Assembly (NCBI GenBank): GCA_963817895.1
Contig: CAWFQB010000005.1
Location: forward strand, 800,001 to 864,000
Direction of reading: 5' to 3'
Source: an uncultured Chthonomonadaceae bacterium
Lineage (GTDB): Bacteria; Armatimonadota; Chthonomonadetes; Chthonomonadales; Chthonomonadaceae
DNA: 64,000 bases
Of this stretch, positions 25,209-42,151 are shown piece by piece; position 1 is the first letter of the stretch, and every line of letters begins with the position of its first letter. The position numbers and the translations under genes were made by a program. The notes under the pieces are model-generated. The model was not told the DNA's origin, did not search any database, and saw nothing but the letters and a program-made list of their open reading frames with translations.

Positions 25209-25282
25209 AGGAAAAAGGAAAAAGGAAAAAGGAGAAAGTGACTGGTTACAGACTTTTTCCCTTCTCCTTTTTCCTTTTTCCT
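25209..25282. repeat. Inverted pair of GGAAAAA heptamer arrays between fliI and fliJ
   Basis: AGGAAAAAGGAAAAAGGAAAAAGGAGAAAG ... CTTTTTCCCTTCTCCTTTTTCCTTTTTCCT. Confidence 0.85.
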
Positions 25283-26658
25283 AACTTGTGAATTGCGTCA
25301 GCAGCGTCCGCAGCGTGTCCATATACGAACTCGGCGCGTCGGCGGGCTGGCGCAGGAAGGCGTTGGCGTGGTCTATTTTGGCTTTGGCGTGGTCTATGCG
25401 AGGGTTACTGCCGTCCACGTATGCGCCGATGTTGATAAGGTCTTCCGCCTGTTTGTAGGTGGCGAGAATGTCGCGCAGGCCGTCTGAGGCTTGTCGCTGT
25501 TCGGGGGACGTGATGGCGGGCATGACGCGGCTGATACTTTGCAGCACGTCCAGAGCGGGGTAGTGTCCCCGATGCGCAAGATGGCGGGACAGGACAATAT
25601 GCCCGTCCAGAATACCGCGCACTGCATCGGCAACGGGTTCGTTCATGTCGTCGCCCTCCACCAGAACCGTATACAGGCCCGTGATGCTTCCCAGCCCGGT
25701 TCCCGACGTTCCCGCGCGTTCAAGGAGGCGTGGCAGCATGGCGAACACGCTCGGAGTATAGCCGCGCGTGGCGGGCGGCTCGCCAATGGCAAGTCCCACT
25801 TCGCGCTGCGCCATCGCGAGACGAGTGACGGAGTCCATCATCAGCATTACATCCAAGCCCTGATCGCGGAAATATTCGGCAATCGCGGTGGCGACAAGCG
25901 GGGCTTTGATACGCACAAGGGCGGGCTGATCCGAGGTGGCGACTACGACAACCGACCGCTGTACGCCCTCGACTCCCAGAACTCTCCTCGACAAAATCCC
26001 GCACTTCGCGCCCGCGTTCACCCACAAGCGCGATCACGTTCACGTCCGCGCTGGAACTGCGGGCAATCATGCCCATCAGCGTAGATTTGCCGACGCCCGA
26101 ACCGGCGAAAATGCCCATGCGCTGCCCCTTGCCGATTGTCAGGCAGCCATCCAGAGCGCGGACGCCGGTTGACAGCGGTTCGGTGATGCGGGGGCGCGTG
26201 ACGGCATTGGGCGGCGGGGCATTGACGGGGTAATACTGGTTCAATTCGAGAGGCGGGCCGCCATCCATTGGCTGTCCCAACCCGTCCAGCATCCTGCCGA
26301 GCAGGACATTGCCGACGGGAACCTGCTGCGTTTGCCGCGTGGCAACCACTTCACTGCCCGGCTTGATGCCCTCCATCACGCCGAGCGGCATAAGCAGAAC
26401 CCGATTTTCCCGAAACCCAACGACTTCGGCTTTAATCGGCGGCCTTGTCGGGTCATAATGGTTGGCGCGGTCATAATAAATCTGGCAGATTTCCCCAAGC
26501 GCGGCGTTCGGCCCGCTGGATTCAATCACCAGCCCGATAACCTGCGTCACCTTGCCGTTCTGCTTGACCAGATCAGTGCGCAACACGCGCTGGCGTATGC
26601 GTTCCAGATCAACAACGGGTGGCAATATGGGGGGAAAATCAAGAGAGGAAGGGTTCAT
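25281..26658 (-). CDS. fliI: Flagellar export ATPase FliI; apparent +1 frameshift near 25986
   Basis: GSGVGKS and GERGREV in one frame; MMDSVTR..REVGL..GEPP, DGHIVLSR in the next. Confidence 0.93.
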
Positions 26659-27224: not shown

Positions 27225-27287
27225 GCCCTTTGCTGCTCGTTGCGCCCTTTACTTTAACGATTGTTGTCCCGCTTTGGAAAATTGACG

Positions 27288-27790
27288 ATGCGCTACGATC
27301 CTGACCGCCATCATCGCCGTTCCCTTCGACTGCAAGGGTACGACTATTCGCAACAGGGAGCCTATTTCGTCACGGTTTGCGTTCATAACCGCGAATGTCT
27401 GCTGGCGAAATCGGCAATGGAACTGTCGTTCTCTCGAAAGTCGGTCAGGCCGTCGAACAGGCGTGGCAGGAGATTGCGGAACGGTTTTCCTATGTGGCTT
27501 TGGACGAATACGTTCTCATGCCTAACCACCTGCACGGCCTTCTCGTTTTTACCGAACCCAACAAGGCAACCGCGTCTGGCAAGGCAACATTGGGCAAGGT
27601 TCTTCGCGCATTCAAGTCGCTTTCAGCGATACAGGCCAATCGGCTGTTAGACCGCGCGGAACAACCCTTTTGGCAGCGTAACTATTACGAACGTATTGTC
27701 CGAAACGAGCTGGAGATGGAGCAAACGCGCATCTACATCCGCAACAATCCTCTGCAATGGGCAACAGATGCAGAAAACCCGATGCAAGAT
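27288..27790 (+). mobile_element. REP-associated tyrosine transposase (RAYT, Y1/HUH); apparent -1 frameshift near 27404
   Basis: HHRRSLRLQGYDYSQQGAYFVTVC, MPNHLH, FKSLSA, WQRNYYERIVRN, YIRNNP. No stop before the next gene; end approximate. Confidence 0.9.
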
Positions 27791-27904
27791 GCGCCCTGTA
27801 TTTGTAACGTTTGTCTTGCAAAAGGGGGGCAGCAAAAAGAGGGTTCAGCAAGCAGAACTCCGACGCCTTGTTCTCTATGTATTTATAGAAAGGAGGGTGT
27901 TGCA

Positions 27905-28534
27905 ATGGCCTACCGCGATTTCACCCTCCCGGCACTGATCCGGCAGTTCAGCCTGACCATAGATGAAACGACCGACCTTTTTGCCGATGTGCCGGAAACA
28001 CCCCTGCGCCCGGAGTTTCAAGCGCGGCTCGGCATTATGGTTCCCCTTGCCCTCACGAATTCGACCGAAAAGGCGCGTTCCGAGTTCATCATCGCGCCCG
28101 TTCTACTGGAACTCTGGCTGCTCAAAAATCGCGAGGTCGGGCTGCTTTCCGGCGTGGAGTTCAACATAGATAGGGCGCAGGGGCTAGAGGGTGTCTGTGA
28201 TTACATCATCACCCGCTTCCCCAAACAACTTTTCATCAAGGCGCCGGTTCTGGTGGTCGTGGAGGCGAAGAACGAGGACATGAAGAAAGGCTACGCGCAG
28301 TGCGGCGCGGAACTAATTGCGGCGCAGCAGTTCAATGAGCGGGAAGGCACGACAACCGAGCGTCTCTATGGTGTAGTGACTATCGGAGAGTTATGGCGGT
28401 TCATGGAGTTGGAAGGCACAACGCTACGGCTCGATTCGCGCAGTTACCACATTGATCGCCTGCCCAAGATCATGGGTATTCTCCTGTGCCTGACCGGAAT
28501 GTACCCGTCAACAGAGAGCGCAACACAATCCTGA
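27905..28534 (+). CDS. PD-(D/E)xK nuclease-like hypothetical protein (HsdR N-terminal-like)
   Basis: AGGAGG RBS; EKARSEFIIAPVL, G.CDY, VVEAK, QC.AE..AAQ.FN, YGVVT.G..W.F. Confidence 0.75.
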   Translation: MAYRDFTLPALIRQFSLTIDETTDLFADVPETPLRPEFQARLGIMVPLALTNSTEKARSEFIIAPVLLELWLLKNREVGLLSGVEFNIDRAQGLEGVCDYIITRFPKQLFIKAPVLVVVEAKNEDMKKGYAQCGAELIAAQQFNEREGTTTERLYGVVTIGELWRFMELEGTTLRLDSRSYHIDRLPKIMGILLCLTGMYPSTESATQS

Positions 28535-29800: not shown

Positions 29801-29937
29801 GGTGATTGGTGGTTGGTGGTTGGTGACTGGTTACTTCGTTCAGAAAGACGTGTCCGTGAGCTTCAAGGCTGTAACCGACACGCTAAACTTTCGCTTTGAA
29901 CAACCAATCATCAACCACCAACCACCAACCACCAATC
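29801..29937. repeat. Inverted pair of TTGGTGG heptamer arrays after rpsG
   Basis: GATTGGTGGTTGGTGGTTGGTGA ... TCAACCACCAACCACCAACCACCAATC. Confidence 0.9.
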
Positions 29938-30411
29938 TTGTGCCTCAAATTGCCCGGCACGAGGAGGATAGTATGTTGTACAATATGAGAGCAAGTTGCC
30001 GTATGGCGCGGCGCTCATTTCGCTGTCGAACGGGGTGTCTTCGGTAGGCCAATCGGCGGTTTGCGCGCGTAAAAGCGGCAAATCCGTTCGGAACATGAAA
30101 AGGTGACTGGAACAACCGGGGACGGCAGATTGCCGTTCTTTGTTGCGAAAGCCTCTTTTCTTTCGATATGTTCTGTACGCGGCAGTCAGCGCGCAATGGG
30201 AAGCGGTTACGCGCCGCCCGATTGGCAGTACGGGTTCCATTCTGTACCTATGGGGAATTCTTTTCCCGATTTGGATGAATGTTCAGCCCGCAACTTACCG
30301 TGACACTCGTATATGGCAGCGAGTGGCATGTATTTTCCTTCGCAACACTCGGAAGCAATTTGAACGCCGCCTGTGTCGGACGACCGGGCGAGGATAGACA
30401 AGAACGAAACT

Positions 30412-32550: not shown

Positions 32551-32592
32551 GGGAGTAAGGGGCAGTTGTCTGTCCCTTACTCCCGTTTCTTT
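32551..32592 (+). terminator. Intrinsic terminator after fusA
   Basis: GGGAGTAAGGGGCAG/CTGTCCCTTACTCCC stem followed by GTTTCTTT. Confidence 0.8.
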
Positions 32593-32681
32593 GCTTCTTA
32601 TATTTTTGCCTGATGAAGTTTGTTTCCGGCGTTGATACCGCGCGTTCACACGACGCGCTTTGTGCCTGTCTGGATGCGTGA

Positions 32682-33182
32682 ATGACTCTCCTGACGCGAC
32701 TGGCTGTTAAAGAACCCTTTGAGACATGGCCGGATATGGAACTTGCCGCAACAGAACGCTATTGGGACGGCCTGGCATTAGCGGCACATGACCTGTCACG
32801 CAATACAGGGGCGGTCTACTGTTTCGGCTACGTTGTCGAGATGTTGTTAAAGGCAGCGTACTTTCGCGTTACCGGTGTGGCAGATACGCAGAACTTAAAT
32901 GCAGGGCCATTAGCTGCTATGCGAACGCAGGCCGCATGGCGCGGACGTAATTTACACGATTTGCAAGGGTTAGCCAGTCTGTTGATTGACGTGAGGCAGG
33001 CGCTTGGCATTGCGTTTGATCCCGCTGTGGCCGCGCAAATGCTGTGGTATGTACTCACAGTGGATTCTCATTGGAGAGAAACCCTGCGCTACAAGCACAC
33101 TCCCGCGCTGGAAGAAGAGCTGCATGAGGTGTATTACGGTGTAGAGTGGATTTGGGAGCATCGTAATTTGTTGTGGAGTTAA
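32682..33182 (+). CDS. HEPN-domain-like protein
   Basis: R..D...L..GAVY..GYVVEMLLKA, RGRNLHDL, W.E.LRY. Confidence 0.75.
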   Translation: MTLLTRLAVKEPFETWPDMELAATERYWDGLALAAHDLSRNTGAVYCFGYVVEMLLKAAYFRVTGVADTQNLNAGPLAAMRTQAAWRGRNLHDLQGLASLLIDVRQALGIAFDPAVAAQMLWYVLTVDSHWRETLRYKHTPALEEELHEVYYGVEWIWEHRNLLWS

Positions 33183-33185
33183 ACC

Positions 33186-33500
33186 ATGCCGGTAATTAGA
33201 ATTCATCCAACAGTTCCGCAAGCCCCGCCGGAGTTAGTAGCCGCGCTTGCCGACGAGTTGCGGCGTAATGAGGTGGATGGGCCGGAAGACGCGCCGCATA
33301 TTGTTGAGGAAGAAGCCCTGCGCGGCAACTACTTTGCGGTCAAAGTGATATGGGATGCCTGGAAAGGTCTTGACCCGGAACTCCGTAGTCGCGCCATCAT
33401 GGATGCTTACAATCAAGTGAGGCCGGAAGATGTGTCTCACATCAGCCTTGCAATCGGTTTTACCCATGCGGACGCGCAACGCTTCAATATCGCTTCCTGA
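33186..33500 (+). CDS. Small hypothetical protein, BolA/KH-like pattern, putative HEPN partner
   Basis: VKVIWDAWKGLDPELRSRAIMDAY...IGFTHADA; starts 3 nt after the HEPN stop. Confidence 0.65.
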   Translation: MPVIRIHPTVPQAPPELVAALADELRRNEVDGPEDAPHIVEEEALRGNYFAVKVIWDAWKGLDPELRSRAIMDAYNQVRPEDVSHISLAIGFTHADAQRFNIAS

Positions 33501-33515
33501 AGCAGAGGTGGTCCA

Positions 33516-34112
33516 ATGTCTAAGATCAAACCAGACTGCGACCAATCCGCGCCCTTTCTGATGTGGGTTGAAGAGATTACAAGGCTACGCCGCGATATTT
33601 GCCTTGTGATTGGGCTTGTTGAGCGCGGGAAATTAGAACTTAATGCGCGTATCGAAGTTGTAGGCGGACAATCCGTTCAACAGGCGCGTATCGCAGACAT
33701 TGAACAGTTCTACAAAAAACAAACTGTTATGCGTTGTGGAGAGCAGGCAGGTGTTCTTCTTAGGCCGACGCCCAAAAAAATAACTCAAGATTGTGTCATT
33801 GCTGCGCCGGACAGTATTCAGGCATGTACAAAATTTCGCGGCAATATACAAGTCGTGAACGAAGCGGAAGGCAGCGGCAAACCTGTCTTCCTTACAGGCG
33901 AAGAAGTTCAGTTCTTCTTTCGTAATATTTATGTGCCGGGAACTTATACGTTCCTTGATGGTTTCGATTCGACAGTATCCGAGAACAGAGTGATTCTGAT
34001 TTGTACGCTTACTCGCCCTGTTGCCATGGAAGAAGGACAAGAGTTTACCGTCTATAGCAACGGGAGAGTTGTTGGAATAGGTAAGGTTGTCGAACTGATT
34101 ACGAAAAGTTGA
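33516..34112 (+). CDS. Divergent EF-Tu domain II+III protein lacking the GTPase domain
   Basis: Colinear with the EF-Tu C-terminal half: PFLM.VE, G.VERG, IEQF.K, GE..GVLLR, TKF, EG, QFFFR, TL..PVAMEEG..F, GRVVG.G.V; own GAGG RBS. Confidence 0.85.
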   Translation: MSKIKPDCDQSAPFLMWVEEITRLRRDICLVIGLVERGKLELNARIEVVGGQSVQQARIADIEQFYKKQTVMRCGEQAGVLLRPTPKKITQDCVIAAPDSIQACTKFRGNIQVVNEAEGSGKPVFLTGEEVQFFFRNIYVPGTYTFLDGFDSTVSENRVILICTLTRPVAMEEGQEFTVYSNGRVVGIGKVVELITKS

Positions 34113-34129
34113 GCTTCTGGAGGAACAAA

Positions 34130-34375
34130 ATGCCGGAAGAAGCTAATATGGCGGCGGATTGGCTCAAACAAGCTGCCGCCGAACGTGGAATGGCAGACAG
34201 GTTCAGCGCCACGTATATGCGCGCTGACAGAGAATGGTTATATTTCGCGGTGCGGCTGAGTAACGCAGGTGATGCTTCGGAAAGAGCAAATTTATTGCTT
34301 GATCTGGAAGACGCCTGGGAGTCTCACGAACCGAACCCGCGCTGGCATTTGATGTTGATGCCTTCCGGCGCGTAG
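34130..34375 (+). CDS. Small hypothetical protein (paralog of 35053..35346)
   Basis: GGAGG RBS; WLKQAA...LEDAW.SHEPNP..HL.L.P. Confidence 0.75.
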   Translation: MPEEANMAADWLKQAAAERGMADRFSATYMRADREWLYFAVRLSNAGDASERANLLLDLEDAWESHEPNPRWHLMLMPSGA

Positions 34376-34514
34376 GAAGCGCGCGATTGACCGATAAACC
34401 AACAGTCGGCTTTATTCCTGCAAATGAAGCCGAACTGATTGCGAAAAATTGAGGTATAATAGCAAGCCGGTCTGCGGACAACGGATGCCCGACCGGTTTT
34501 TGCTTTGACTATGG

Positions 34515-34613
34515 TTCAGGTATTCAGGTATTCAGGTATTCAGGTATTCAGGTTAGGCGCAATTCCTTCCTGTACACCTGAATACCTGAATACCTGAATA
34601 CCTGAATACCTGA
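34515..34613. repeat. Inverted pair of TTCAGGTA octamer arrays in the rpsJ leader
   Basis: (TTCAGGTA)x4+ ... (TACCTGAA)x4+. Confidence 0.93.
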
Positions 34614-34630: not shown

Positions 34631-34951
34631 ATGCCACCCCTCGGACGACAGGACAAGGTTCGCATTCGCTTGCGGGCTTTTGACCACCGCATCCTGGACC
34701 AGTCGGCAGAAAAGATCGTGGATACCGCCAAGCGCACGGGCGCGCGCGTGGCCGGACCCGTTCTTCTTCCGACCGAGAAGCTGATCATCTGCGTGAACCG
34801 CAGCACGACCATTGACAAAGAGAGCATGGAGCATTTCGAGCAACGGACGCATAAGCGCCTGATTGATATTCTCGAACCCGGCCCCAAAACCATTGACGCG
34901 CTGATGCGCCTCGATCTGCCGAGCGGCGTTGACATCGAAATAAAACTGTAG
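34631..34951 (+). CDS. rpsJ: 30S ribosomal protein S10
   Basis: [39 protein letters not shown]. Confidence 0.99.
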
Positions 34952-35052
34952 GCGCAACGTTTATGGAACTCTGGCAGCAATGGTGGATGCTGGCGCAGTA
35001 ATCGGTTCATCACGGCTCAGATAGAAGCGATTTTGCCGAAAGAAAACTAGCA

Positions 35053-35346
35053 ATGGCTGATTTGTTGGAGAAACCAGTCCGGCTGGATCTCGATGCGCTT
35101 CACGCCTGGCTAGAGCAAGAGGCAAAAGCGCAAAACATTCAGGCATATTTCGCAATCCGAAGCGCGAAGGTGCTTGAGGATGGCTACCTTAAATTGCCGA
35201 CCTACATCGGCAATCCAGGAACTGCCTTTGAACAGGTGGTCTTGATGGGAAACCTTGAAGACGCCTGGAACGATCAGGAACCGAAGCCTGAGTTTAAGCT
35301 GCACCTCTACCCGATGGGCAAGCCCCGCGAGTGGAGCAGCGAGTAG
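35053..35346 (+). CDS. Small hypothetical protein inserted between rpsJ and rplC (paralog of 34130..34375)
   Basis: WLEQEA...LEDAWNDQEPKP..KLHLYP. Confidence 0.75.
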   Translation: MADLLEKPVRLDLDALHAWLEQEAKAQNIQAYFAIRSAKVLEDGYLKLPTYIGNPGTAFEQVVLMGNLEDAWNDQEPKPEFKLHLYPMGKPREWSSE

Positions 35347-38389: not shown

Positions 38390-39262
38390 ATGTCTGATGA
38401 TACGATAGACTCGAACGTGGCCGTTATGGAACGCCCGCGTCAGCACCGCGAAAACCGCAAAAAGAATATCGGGCGCAAAGTGGCCCCCAACCAGGCGTTT
38501 GCCGTCGTCAAGTTCATCCGCGTGCCGCCGCGCAAAGCGCGGCTGGTTATCAACGAAGTGCGCGGCAAGTACACCAACGACGCGCTGGCGTTTCTGCGCT
38601 TTATTCCCAACCGCGCGGCAGGTTACATCTCCAAAGTGCTGTATTCCGCCGTCGCCAACGCCGCCAACAATCACGGCCTGAACCCGGACAACCTGAAGCT
38701 GGTGGAAGCCCGCGTGGACGAAGGCCCGCGCATGAAGCGCGTCCAGCCCCGCGCACAGGGGCGGGCGTACCGCATCCTGAAGCGCATGAGCCATATCACA
38801 GTTGTTGTGGAAGAGGTCGGTCCCAAGCCGCGCAAGCCGAAAAAGGCGGGACGCCGCAACCAGCAGCCCGGTCGCCAACAGCAGGCCGCTCCGATGACAA
38901 CGGCGGCCCCGGTCAGCATTGCGGAAGATACGGAAATCACCACACCGGTAACGGCAGTGGAAGATACCGCGTCCGCCGCAGTGGCAGCCGAGGCGACAAC
39001 GCCGGTCACTCCGACAACGGAAACAACCACATCCGCGAGTGAAGCGACGGCAGCGCCGGAAGCAACACCCGCCACTGCTGACGTGCCGGAAGGTCCGCAA
39101 ACGGCGAACCCGGCAGCCACGGACGAAATTGGCGCGCCGACCACGCCGGACGCAGTGGAACCGACAATCGCCTCCACGGATGGCGACGTAACCGGCGATA
39201 CGCAGGCGGAAACCGCCAACACTCAGGACAAAACCGACGAAATCGGAGCGCCGACGGAGTAG
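38390..39262 (+). CDS. rplV: 50S ribosomal protein L22 with long Ala/Thr/Glu/Pro-rich C-terminal tail
   Basis: PRKARLV, SAVANA, DEGP, PRAQGRA..ILKRMSHITV; 290 aa. Confidence 0.97.
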   Translation: MSDDTIDSNVAVMERPRQHRENRKKNIGRKVAPNQAFAVVKFIRVPPRKARLVINEVRGKYTNDALAFLRFIPNRAAGYISKVLYSAVANAANNHGLNPDNLKLVEARVDEGPRMKRVQPRAQGRAYRILKRMSHITVVVEEVGPKPRKPKKAGRRNQQPGRQQQAAPMTTAAPVSIAEDTEITTPVTAVEDTASAAVAAEATTPVTPTTETTTSASEATAAPEATPATADVPEGPQTANPAATDEIGAPTTPDAVEPTIASTDGDVTGDTQAETANTQDKTDEIGAPTE

Positions 39263-39267
39263 GAGGG

Positions 39268-39390
39268 AAGATACGAGATACGAGATACGAGATACGAGTG
39301 GGGAACTATAATTCCGCGTTTTCTCGGTTCAGGGAATACAGTGTAGGATGGTCTTTTCACTTGTATCTTGTATCTCGTATCTCGTATCTT
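39268..39390. repeat. Inverted pair of GATACGA heptamer arrays, rplV-rpsC
   Basis: (AGATACG)x4 ... TTGTATCTTGTATCTCGTATCTCGTATCTT. Confidence 0.93.
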
Positions 39391-39409
39391 CTGCCTCTCA
39401 GGAGAGACT

Positions 39410-40657
39410 ATGGGCCAGAAAGTACACCCAATCGGATTTCGAATCGGCGTGATTCGCGACACGGAGAGCAAGTGGTATCTCCCGAAGCGCGGTTTCGCCG
39501 ATGCCGTATATGAAGATTACAAGATTCGCCGTTATATCAAGAAGCACAAAATTCTTGCCAACGCCGCTATTTCCCGCGTGGAAATCGAGCGGGGCGGCAA
39601 CCGCGTAAAAGCCACGCTGCACACCGCCAAACCCGGCATCATCATCGGGCGGCAGGGGCAGGGCGTGGACAACCTGAAAGCCGAACTGGAAAAGTTGACA
39701 CAGAAACAGGTGCATGTTTCAGTCAATGAAATCCGGCAGCCCGATCAGGACGCGCAGCTCGTGGCCGAAAGCATCGCGCAGCAGATCGAAAAGCGCATCG
39801 CGTACAAACGCGCCATGCGTCAGGCGGTTCTTCGCGCCATGAAACTGGGCGTCAAGGGTATCCGCGTGATGTGTTCCGGGCGGCTCGCGGGCGCGGAAAT
39901 GGCGCGCAAAGAGCAGGATCGCCAAGGCAAAATTCCGCTTCACACCCTCCGCGCCGACATTGACTACGGCTTTGCCGAAGCGGCAACCACGTATGGCAAC
40001 ATTGGCATCAAAGTGTGGATTTACAAGGGCGATGTTCTGCCGGGACAGGCGCGGCAAACGGAGTCCGAGCCGGCTCGCCCGCAGCGCGGCGATGGCCGCC
40101 CGGATCGTTCCGGCGAACGGTCGGACAGCGGACGTGGCGGTGATCGCGGCGGCAGGGGCGGCAGAAGCGGTGGCGGCGGTGATCGCGGCGGACGCGGTGG
40201 CGGCGGCGGTGGACGCGGCGGCCAGGGTAGCGGCGGCTTTAGCGGCGGCGGTGGTCAAGGCGGTGGCGGCTTCAGTGGCGGTGGCGGTCGCGGCGGTCAA
40301 GGCGGCGGTGGCGGCTACCAGGGCGGCGGTCAAGGCGGTCAGGCTGGCGGTCAGGCCGGACCTGCCCGCACCGGCGGACGCGGCGACGGCTTTGGCGGCG
40401 CGGCGCAGGGCGGCCCGCGCGCGCAGGGTACGGGCGGCAGTCGTCCAAGTGGCGGGGGCGGCGGCACAAGCCGACCGGGCGCAGGTGGTGGGCCGAGCGG
40501 CGTACCGGGCGGCGGCGGGCGACCTGCCGGCGAGCCGGGGCCGCGCGCCGATGTGAGTGGAACCGGGCGCGAGGCGCCCCAGGGTCATCAGGATCAACGC
40601 GGGGGCGCAGGCCCCGGCGGCGGTCATCCCAACGACAATCCTACACCGAACGAGTAG
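39410..40657 (+). CDS. rpsC: 30S ribosomal protein S3 with about 200-aa Gly/Arg-rich tail
   Basis: [38 protein letters not shown]. Confidence 0.98.
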
Positions 40658-41497: not shown

Positions 41498-42151
41498 ATG
41501 TCAGACGAAACAGTAAACTCGGTGGCAACGCCCGTCGAGACGGAACCGACGGCTGCTGCGGTCACTGCTCCCGAAGCGACGCCTGCGGAAGAGGCCATCG
41601 GCGTCTTAGCGACACCCAACGCGGAAGCGGCAACGGAAACATCGGAAACGGAACCCGTGACTACGGAAACCACCACAGCCGAAACCAATGCTGGAGAAGC
41701 CGGAACGACAGATGCGCCTATGGCAGTGGAAACGCCCACAGCGGAACCGGCGGCTGCCGCTCCCGCCCCGGTTGTGGCTGCGCCCACGCCTCCCAAAGCG
41801 AAGGCGAAAGCAACGGGCGGTGGTTCGGCGCAGTCCAAACTGTCCGATCCCGCCAACGACTTGAACATCATTCATTTCGAGGGCGACAAGAGCGATACGG
41901 AGCGCGGGCGGCGTAAAGTTCGCACCGGGCGCGTGGTCAGCAGCAAAATGCAGAAGACTGTTGTTGTGGCTGTGGAAACGCGCAAGCGTCACCCGCTATA
42001 CGGCAAGTTCATGCGCCAGACGGCGAAGTTCAAGGCCCACGACGAGCAGAATGAGTGCGGCGAGGGCGATACCGTGGAAATCATGGAAACTCGTCCGCTG
42101 TCCAAAGACAAGAACTGGCGCGTTATCCGTATCATAGAAAAAGCGAAGTAG
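41498..42151 (+). CDS. rpsQ: 30S ribosomal protein S17 with about 130-aa acidic N-terminal extension
   Basis: [35 protein letters not shown]. Confidence 0.97.

Follow-up and report, generated by a model that had tools for sequence, protein, structure and literature searches.

The four small open reading frames (ORF1 to ORF4; Table 1) that lie between fusA and rpsJ in a 64,000-nucleotide (nt) stretch of an uncultured Chthonomonadaceae bacterium (GenBank assembly GCA_963817895.1, contig CAWFQB010000005.1, positions 800,001 to 864,000; hereafter the window) are not one system but a composite, lodged in housekeeping operons. ORF1 and ORF2 would form a mobile two-gene module (module 1), most likely a type II toxin–antitoxin (TA) pair of a HEPN protein and a BolA-like partner. 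ORF4, together with a further frame (ORF5) and a gene stub behind rpsJ, would be the remains of a second, unrelated HEPN-T module (module 2) that lost its toxin. ORF3 would be a tuf-derived protein without a G domain at the former place of tufA, with tufB supplying the real EF-Tu. The str-S10 junction would then hold three such insertions around a recast tufA. An initial annotation had described four tightly spaced, co-oriented genes after the fusA terminator and before rpsJ (start at 34631), as is borne out by the fusA hairpin and by gaps of 3, 15 and 17 nt, but it had also taken the four genes for a single module. They are not mere chance reading frames, as homologues were found for each. 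The G+C content falls from about 0.60 in fusA to 0.47–0.54 over ORF1 to ORF4.

A scan with an alignment of ORF1-type HEPNs gave 41 loci, mostly in Planctomycetota with others in Armatimonadota and Sumerlaeota. With ORF2 as the sole query, the gene after the HEPN was an ORF2 homologue at all 36 of these loci with a called ORF; by profile, the partner stood behind the HEPN at 40 of the 41, the remaining locus lying at a contig end. ORF1 and ORF2 therefore travel as a pair. Homologues of ORF3 or ORF4 were found at none of the 41 loci, contrary to the proposal of a four-gene module; two matches to a tuf query (L087 and L104, 29–30% identity) cover the GTPase part and do not match ORF3. Among 70 ORFs flanking module-1 loci there was no third conserved gene: 27 had a Pfam family, no leading family occurred twice and only two were of restriction type, so that a defence-island setting was rejected.

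The spread of the pair is patchy. The ORF2 family occurs in 5 of 42 genomes of the bacterial family, at seven places, six of them with a HEPN gene in front, and the genome of the window (G000, 81% complete) carries another copy, flanked by gap and pgk, with a stop in the HEPN. In the phylum, a wider profile of BolA-like partners matched 27 of 201 genomes; of 30 loci fetched, 24 (20 of 26 after removal of the four query-source loci) have a HEPN-T gene immediately before the partner. A small, tightly linked and patchily spread two-gene unit is a feature shared with type II TA systems. No relatives of ORF1 were found in viral contigs and no ORF2 matches in plasmids.

ORF1 had been proposed as a HEPN protein from three hallmark motifs. 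Two of these are present (GYVVEMLLKA and WRETLRY); the third, given as R-x-HDL, is R-x-x-HDL (R89-N-L-H92), with R89 found in 8 of 31 ORF1-family members and H92 in all 31. We rejected R89-H92 as a catalytic motif. The assignment itself was upheld by the AlphaFold model, which is all helix with a predicted local confidence (pLDDT) of 91. Its best structural matches were 1ufb (TT1696) and AF0298 (2hsb), at Z 13.6 and a root-mean-square deviation (rmsd) of 2.7-3.0 over 120-123 aligned residues, followed by ST0689 and then by the sacsin HEPN, the top four all being HEPN-T proteins. In a Foldseek search with the model HEPN proteins filled the first five ranks, with weak E-values. Judged from its model, ORF1 is a HEPN domain of the HEPN-T type. 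HepT/MntA class I systems share the HEPN fold and the toxin–partner logic (PMC7641770, as far as its available text goes), but class I HEPNs score lower against the model (5yep Z 8.6, 7ae2 Z 8.1), ORF1 has no RX4HXY motif, the partner has no GSX10DXD motif and here the HEPN gene comes first.

ORF1 had no direct family match in Pfam, NCBIfam, PADLOC or PHROGs, and a sequence-profile search of the PDB gave nothing significant. PF05168 did not match ORF1 itself and matched one of the 31 family members at E 0.087, although the ORF1-family profile reaches distant relatives that do match PF05168 (5 of 8 above cut-off). Within the family E53 is conserved in 30 of 31 members and K57, H92 and R136 in all 31 (positions from the model). 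These residues form an AF0298-type layout, with Ex3[KR] in helix 2, an alternative His between helices 2 and 3 and a basic residue ending helix 3; the accessible part of PMC3710099 describes this HEPN-T layout and suggests an alternative active site.

For ORF2 the model was less confident (pLDDT 74). The top four structures in the VIA search were all BolA proteins, the best at Z 6.3 and rmsd 3.2 over 65 aligned residues (under Z 8 and short of a strong match), and the top four in Foldseek were again BolA, the best being BolA1 at E 2.7e-3. ORF2 thus likely has a BolA/KH-like alpha-beta fold, in keeping with the first description of this gene as BolA-like and devoid of a GSxxxG..DxD motif; a loose GS..DxD pattern was found in 0 of 42 ORF2-family members. 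No direct family match was obtained for ORF2 in Pfam, NCBIfam, PADLOC or PHROGs, a PDB sequence-profile search gave nothing significant, and PF01722 (BolA) matched 0 of the 42 members. The partners of more distant HEPN-T genes look more plainly BolA-like than ORF2: PF01722 matched four of six (best E 1.3e-4, all under cut-off), and a nucleotidyltransferase family never did.

ORF2 also differs from known BolA proteins. The invariant His before beta3, which is an Fe–S ligand in BolA (PMC7538681, available text), is present in only 3 of 42 members, ORF2 included; in our own alignment the family has Trp in place of a core Phe; there was no glutaredoxin among the 70 module-1 neighbours; and the gene is tied to a HEPN. 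Compared with its orthologue in G002, a close relative with a 97% identical fusA, ORF2 is 91% identical with a ratio of nonsynonymous to synonymous substitution rates (dN/dS) of 0.08, indicating purifying selection. In most of the Planctomycete partners (L067-L101) a further conserved domain, about 75 residues long, follows at the C-terminus.

ORF1 and ORF2 are predicted to bind each other. The modelled complex scored 0.75 against 0.01 for the best of three controls; solved complexes attained this mark in 116 of 157 cases and mismatched pairs in 2 of 215. The runs agreed in at least 96% of contacts and the partner had a pLDDT of at least 84. On the ORF2 side the predicted interface comprises residues 44-52, 64-72, 86-91 and 99-101, that is, the beta2/beta3/alpha3 face, which in BolA binds glutaredoxin (PMC7538681, in the text available). 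Together with the pairing, the two folds and the biased loss of the HEPN described next, this model favours for ORF1 and ORF2 the suggestion, made for the whole cassette, of a non-canonical HEPN toxin–antitoxin.

We then asked which of the two genes is lost. After one of 48 module-1 loci was dropped (partner off the contig), 38 of the remaining 47 were whole, the HEPN alone was broken or gone in 7, both genes in 1 and the partner alone in none, with 1 unclear. For module 2, the 14 copies counted (two further orphan partners in G002 being excluded) comprised 8 whole, 4 with the HEPN alone lost, 2 with both broken or unclear and none with the partner alone lost; in these counts the HEPN gene is longer than its partner, and kin are not independent. 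In G002, ORF1 is deleted and ORF2 kept, and one public contig shows the same loss. The HEPN is lost preferentially, and the partner lingers.

The genome of the window holds at least 12 HEPN loci. They include three more HEPN-T + BolA-like pairs (C4:795583-796347, C14:120786-121553 and C3:about 296500-297215), one of them broken and one between nuoE and nuoF, and there is a further partner-like match at C6:92927-93169. Other HEPN genes have small downstream partners of further kinds (C14:738620, C1:1412682, C4:920513, C14:130163 and C4:367965), of which the first three resemble distant ORF4-family matches by eye. A relative, G023, has tandem HEPN-T/BolA-like pairs with extra orphan partners (L150/L177; C2:838000-842000).

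ORF4 belongs to a different HEPN. It is the orphan partner of HEPN2, which is deleted here: a PF05168 gene with a frameshift separates ORF3 from ORF4 in G002, one public contig is 401 letters longer at this place, and the HEPN2 family matches PF05168 in 4 of 5 members. ORF4 is 67% identical to a copy between rpsJ and rplC in G017. At E<=0.001 its family comprises 149 representatives, including some long repeat proteins that are spurious matches; it occurs in 12 of the 42 family genomes, all 12 with a copy between rpsJ and rplC behind HEPN2 or a HEPN2 stub. ORF5 is 86% identical to its G002 copy, with a dN/dS of 0.18. In the phylum sample, where 13 of 201 genomes matched the ORF4 family, module 2 stands before ftsZ in five genomes (ftsA upstream in four), before mnmG in one and between iscS and iscU in two; the other two are contig ends. 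The neighbour names gap, pgk, nusG, rplK, ftsA, ftsZ, iscS, iscU, mnmG, nuoE and nuoF rest on our reading of the sequences and not on a family scan.

A 23-nt direct repeat flanks ORF4, identical at 21 of 23 positions against a best of 19 in 40 codon shuffles, as would be expected after an insertion; module 2 may thus have inserted at the 3′ end of ORF3. The start of ORF4 is most likely the ATG at 34130, an alternative TTG at 34109 giving 88 amino acids (aa). The ORF4 family had no match in Pfam or in a PDB sequence-profile search, ORF4 itself had none in NCBIfam, PADLOC or PHROGs and only matches under 0.9 in Atlas, and a loose GSX10DXD-like pattern was present in 1 of 116 members. The nucleotidyltransferase families of Pfam were matched by neither the ORF2 nor the ORF4 family. 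In profile–profile comparison, with shallow alignments that could miss a shared fold, the ORF2 family showed no connection to the ORF4 family, nor did the ORF1 HEPN family to the HEPN2 family. In the rpsJ-rplC gap of G002 (L033:9224-10586), HEPN2 is intact and is accompanied by three ORF4-family partners, one of them behind a second HEPN stub.

ORF3 is the only one of the four ORFs with a family match (PF03144 and PF03143, above cut-off). It is EF-Tu-like, as first described, but the match spans only residues 202-393 of the 394-position EF-Tu models, leaving domains 2 and 3 without a G domain. It is 35% identical to the one tuf found in G000 (contig C10, near nusG and rplK), and it shares with the local tuf genes residues that differ from consensus EF-Tu (D-x-E-Q-F-x-K-K, K-F-x-G and Q-F-F-F-R). 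In 30 fetched rpsJ loci (34 genomes matched) tuf lay directly upstream in 24, fusA with nothing tuf-like between in 3 and ORF3 in 2, with 1 uninformative. By eye, the hairpin after the tufA stop in G013, G021 and G017 is the hairpin that follows the ORF3-end repeat here; the TATAAT before it occurs only in G000, G001 and G002 of the eight genomes shown. By sequence and position, ORF3 would appear to be a tuf-derived offshoot. Trees of ORF3 with the local tuf genes gave a long stem and did not place its origin between decay in place and re-insertion of a mobile tuf derivative. Since it has no G domain, ORF3 cannot deliver tRNA, and a working EF-Tu was rejected. In all five ORF3-family members the RHTPF and REGGxT motifs of domain 3, which we take to contact tRNA, are replaced. 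A decoy or chaperone role for ORF3 would be a guess.

The slot itself has been emptied in other lineages: the str operon has no tufA in G001 (L034:4020-4611), G023 and G015 (L035, L042) while most relatives keep the gene, so that it was lost more than once. In G001 a small ORF stands in the rpsJ leader in place of tufA. The divergent EF-Tu paralogues described in PMC4342817, such as actinobacterial EF-Tu3, are whole GTPases, unlike ORF3, and the available text of that paper names only one distinct bacterial EF-Tu paralogue.

Four stand-alone homologues of ORF3 were found, at 81, 74, 60 and 39% identity, three of which probably sit in the same operon as rplC; the closest is on a contig with rpsJ and rplC identical to those of the window. 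In a 7242-nt public contig fusA is joined straight to ORF3, with no ORF1 or ORF2, and two relatives carry ORF2 and ORF3 without ORF1. A search of 41 family genomes gave no further intact copy, and a metagenome scan gave one spurious locus only; the public sequencing runs contain only 5–6% of the words of the window.

These data bear on the possibility that ORF3 is a decaying tufA pseudogene and ORF4 and ORF5 are functionless debris, so that only ORF1 and ORF2 matter. The G002 copies of ORF3 and ORF4 are both frameshifted, with dN/dS values of 0.47 and 0.42; a public contig has one more single-base deletion; the G+C content at third codon positions is 0.43 in ORF3 against 0.77 in tufB; and in G001, G015 and G023 the slot is without any gene. 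Neutral decay, however, would not be expected to leave five open frames of 183-204 aa at 39–81% identity, four of which share the same new N-terminus. Domain 3 is 76-81% identical among four members and only about 35% identical to tuf, with domain 2 at 31-83%, a pattern that suggests a burst of change followed by new constraint. ORF3 and ORF4 also keep good ribosome-binding sites, and the low dN/dS of ORF5 argues in the same direction. We regard debris as a tenable but unlikely account of these genes.

In the composite that we favour, ORF1 would be the toxin of module 1 and would probably act as a dimer that cuts or binds RNA by means of E53/K57, R136 and the alternative histidine H92. ORF2 cannot AMPylate, so neutralisation would be by direct binding, through the beta2/beta3/alpha3 face, and not by AMPylation as in MNTs. 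Both modules, each having a small non-enzymatic partner that would restrain the HEPN by direct binding, would lodge between genes of housekeeping operons, probably borrowing their transcription; loss of the HEPN would disarm them and leave the partner behind.

The same anatomy could also hold a pair that is not toxic at all, HEPN-T and its BolA-like partner being a constitutive complex, an RNA-binding or stress-response regulator, that moves as a two-gene unit. ORF1 has no canonical RNase motif, most module-1 loci are intact, and no helix-turn-helix (HTH) family matched the module proteins nor was an operator seen, upstream regions not having been compared across loci. As far as the available texts go, MNT–HEPN pairs could be stress-response modules according to PMC2701414, which leaves the point open, and HEPNs without the motif are proposed in PMC3710099 to bind RNA non-catalytically. 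An obligate complex should nevertheless decay on either side, yet 11 cases show loss of only the HEPN and not one shows loss of only the partner; in G002 the orphaned ORF2 stays under purifying selection; and the four putative active residues are near-invariant. A non-toxic regulator is accordingly rather unlikely.

Several findings weigh against a TA pair on borrowed transcription. The ORF1 family has no conserved His 5-7 residues after R136, stray matches to Rx4-6H (RX4HXY) occurring in 3 of 31 members, and according to the accessible text of PMC7641770 no biochemistry existed for class II HEPNs (PF05168), whose MNTs keep GSX10DXD. The match of ORF2 to BolA is middling, with an MNT at Z 4.0 in the same list. 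The predicted interface touches HEPN residues 84-129 and leaves the putative active residues uncovered, so that any block would be indirect, for example on dimer formation. Of the 47 module-1 loci 38 are intact, and some of the breaks may be due to assembly errors, which more often fall in the longer gene. Between fusA and ORF1 there is a terminator-like hairpin, and a promoter scan (1 site against 4.1 in shuffles) detected no sigma-70 promoter for ORF1, so that borrowed transcription is doubtful for this gene. Finally, homologues of ORF1 and ORF3 are probably on one 1.56-Mb contig in one very close relative; this may be explained by inheritance.

Module 1 resembles the class II HEPN/MNT modules (PF05168 + PF01909; PMC7641770, PMC2701414 and PMC3710099, in their available texts) in being a small mobile two-gene unit whose HEPN-T lacks RX4HXY and has the AF0298-like layout, but its partner is not an MNT, having a likely BolA-like fold and no GSX10DXD. 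ORF2 might instead be a catalytically dead, trimmed MNT and module 1 a degenerate class II pair. HEPN-T proteins normally pair with MNTs (PMC3710099 and PMC7641770, same texts), MNT structures appear further down the ORF2 fold list (1ylq Z 4.0, 2rff Z 3.5) and the alpha-beta-beta-alpha-beta order is common to both folds. BolA proteins, however, take the top four ranks in both searches, the related partners lean towards PF01722 and never towards a nucleotidyltransferase family, and GS..DxD is absent throughout. MNT activity for ORF2 was rejected, and we consider descent from an MNT distinctly doubtful.

A single four-gene defence or TA system, with the EF-Tu-like protein either sensing a phage or tRNA signal or supplying the HEPN nuclease with tRNA, is very improbable: despite the tight co-oriented spacing, the probable shared contig and the existence of RNase toxins that need EF-Tu (bioRxiv 10.64898/2026.09.18.752725 and PMC9071432, as far as available), it is largely refuted by independent gain and loss, with no ORF1 locus carrying ORF3 or ORF4, ORF3 occurring without ORF1 and ORF2 or without ORF1, ORF4 belonging to another HEPN, ORF3 lacking the G domain and the conserved domain-3 motifs, and no PADLOC, PHROGs, viral or plasmid match for the tested window genes. 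Nothing supported the suggested role of the EF-Tu-like protein as sensor or adaptor of the HEPN.

A bolder extension of the composite is a long shot. BolA-fold proteins would be a new antitoxin class for HEPN-T RNases, and the placement of the modules within essential operons (rpsJ-rplC, gap-pgk, ftsA-ftsZ, iscS-iscU, nuoE-nuoF) would serve a purpose: once host transcription is shut off by a phage or a stress, the partner would decay and the HEPN be freed. The duplicate tufA would now encode an EF-Tu decoy lacking the G domain, a sink for toxins or phage proteins that hijack EF-Tu domains 2-3; this would explain the fast, conflict-like divergence of ORF3. Lodging in essential operons, with a fixed rpsJ-rplC site in 12 of 42 family genomes, makes the shut-off idea testable. 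PF05168 class II HEPNs are very common, their status as toxins being still open in PMC7641770; the small clean pairs seen here, with two non-AMPylating partner families that are more rarely lost than the HEPN itself, could settle the question. If the pair were confirmed, BolA, known for Fe–S and glutaredoxin roles, would become an antitoxin fold. A free-standing protein of EF-Tu domains 2-3 at the place of tufA would be a rare example of a core translation gene that has escaped gene conversion and taken on another job.

The HEPN + BolA-like pair is widespread and apparently undescribed. We found no published description of it in mostly non-subscription literature (main texts without supplements), including that on class II HEPNs and on HEPNs of Armatimonadota, and BolA is absent from the main texts of PMC3710099, PMC2701414 and PMC10440598 as available. 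Among the matches listed there was likewise no description of BolA as an antitoxin, of a HEPN in the S10 operon or of a G-domain-less EF-Tu.

Table 1. Features of the fusA–rpsJ–rplC region (positions in the window)
Feature	Position	Strand	Remarks
Terminator-like hairpin and T-tract 3′ of fusA	32551..32608	+	15-pair stem 32551-32584, then T-rich tail
ORF1, HEPN-T-type, putative toxin of module 1	32682..33182	+	166 aa; E53xxxK57, H92, R136-Y137; no Rx4-6H
ORF2, BolA-like partner, putative antitoxin of module 1	33186..33500	+	104 aa; from fold model, pairing and predicted complex
ORF3, EF-Tu domains 2-3 without G domain, tufA slot	33516..34112	+	198 aa; PF03144 + PF03143
23-nt direct repeat, left copy (3′ end of ORF3), flanking module 2	34091..34113	+	21/23 identical to 34431-34453
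Scar of deleted second HEPN gene (HEPN2, PF05168)	34113..34119	+	Frameshifted HEPN2 there in G002; 401 extra letters in one public contig
ORF4, orphan partner of HEPN2 (module 2)	34130..34375	+	81 aa from ATG behind GGAGG
23-nt direct repeat, right copy	34431..34453	+	21/23 identical to 34091-34113
TATAAT (-10-like, 34455-34460) and hairpin (34465-34498)	34455..34498	+	In relatives, hairpin directly 3′ of tufA stop
HEPN2 stub behind rpsJ	34963..35001	+	12 codons; matches start of intact 133-aa HEPN2 at same place in G002; 401 more letters in RNA-library contig
ORF5, second orphan partner of ORF4 family, between rpsJ and rplC	35053..35346	+	32% identical to ORF4, E 1e-11

Matches to Rfam were chance hairpins only. 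The rpsJ leader contains inverted arms of short tandem units (34515-34613; an 8-nt unit four times on each side) with a REP-type look, and at this site G002 has another tandem unit. Inverted arms of a 7-nt tandem unit, also REP-like in appearance, lie behind rpsG (29803-29938). Just upstream of rpsL, an IS200-like Y1 transposase frame (PF01797) at 27261-28534 runs into an unrelated-looking C-terminal part. The flagellar ATPase gene at 25281-26658, which we take to be fliI, is seemingly split over two overlapping frames by a frameshift or an assembly error. Further downstream, rplV, rpsC and rpsQ (38390-39262, 39368-40657 and 41498-42151) have long low-complexity extensions that are acidic and Thr/Ala-rich or Gly/Arg-rich.

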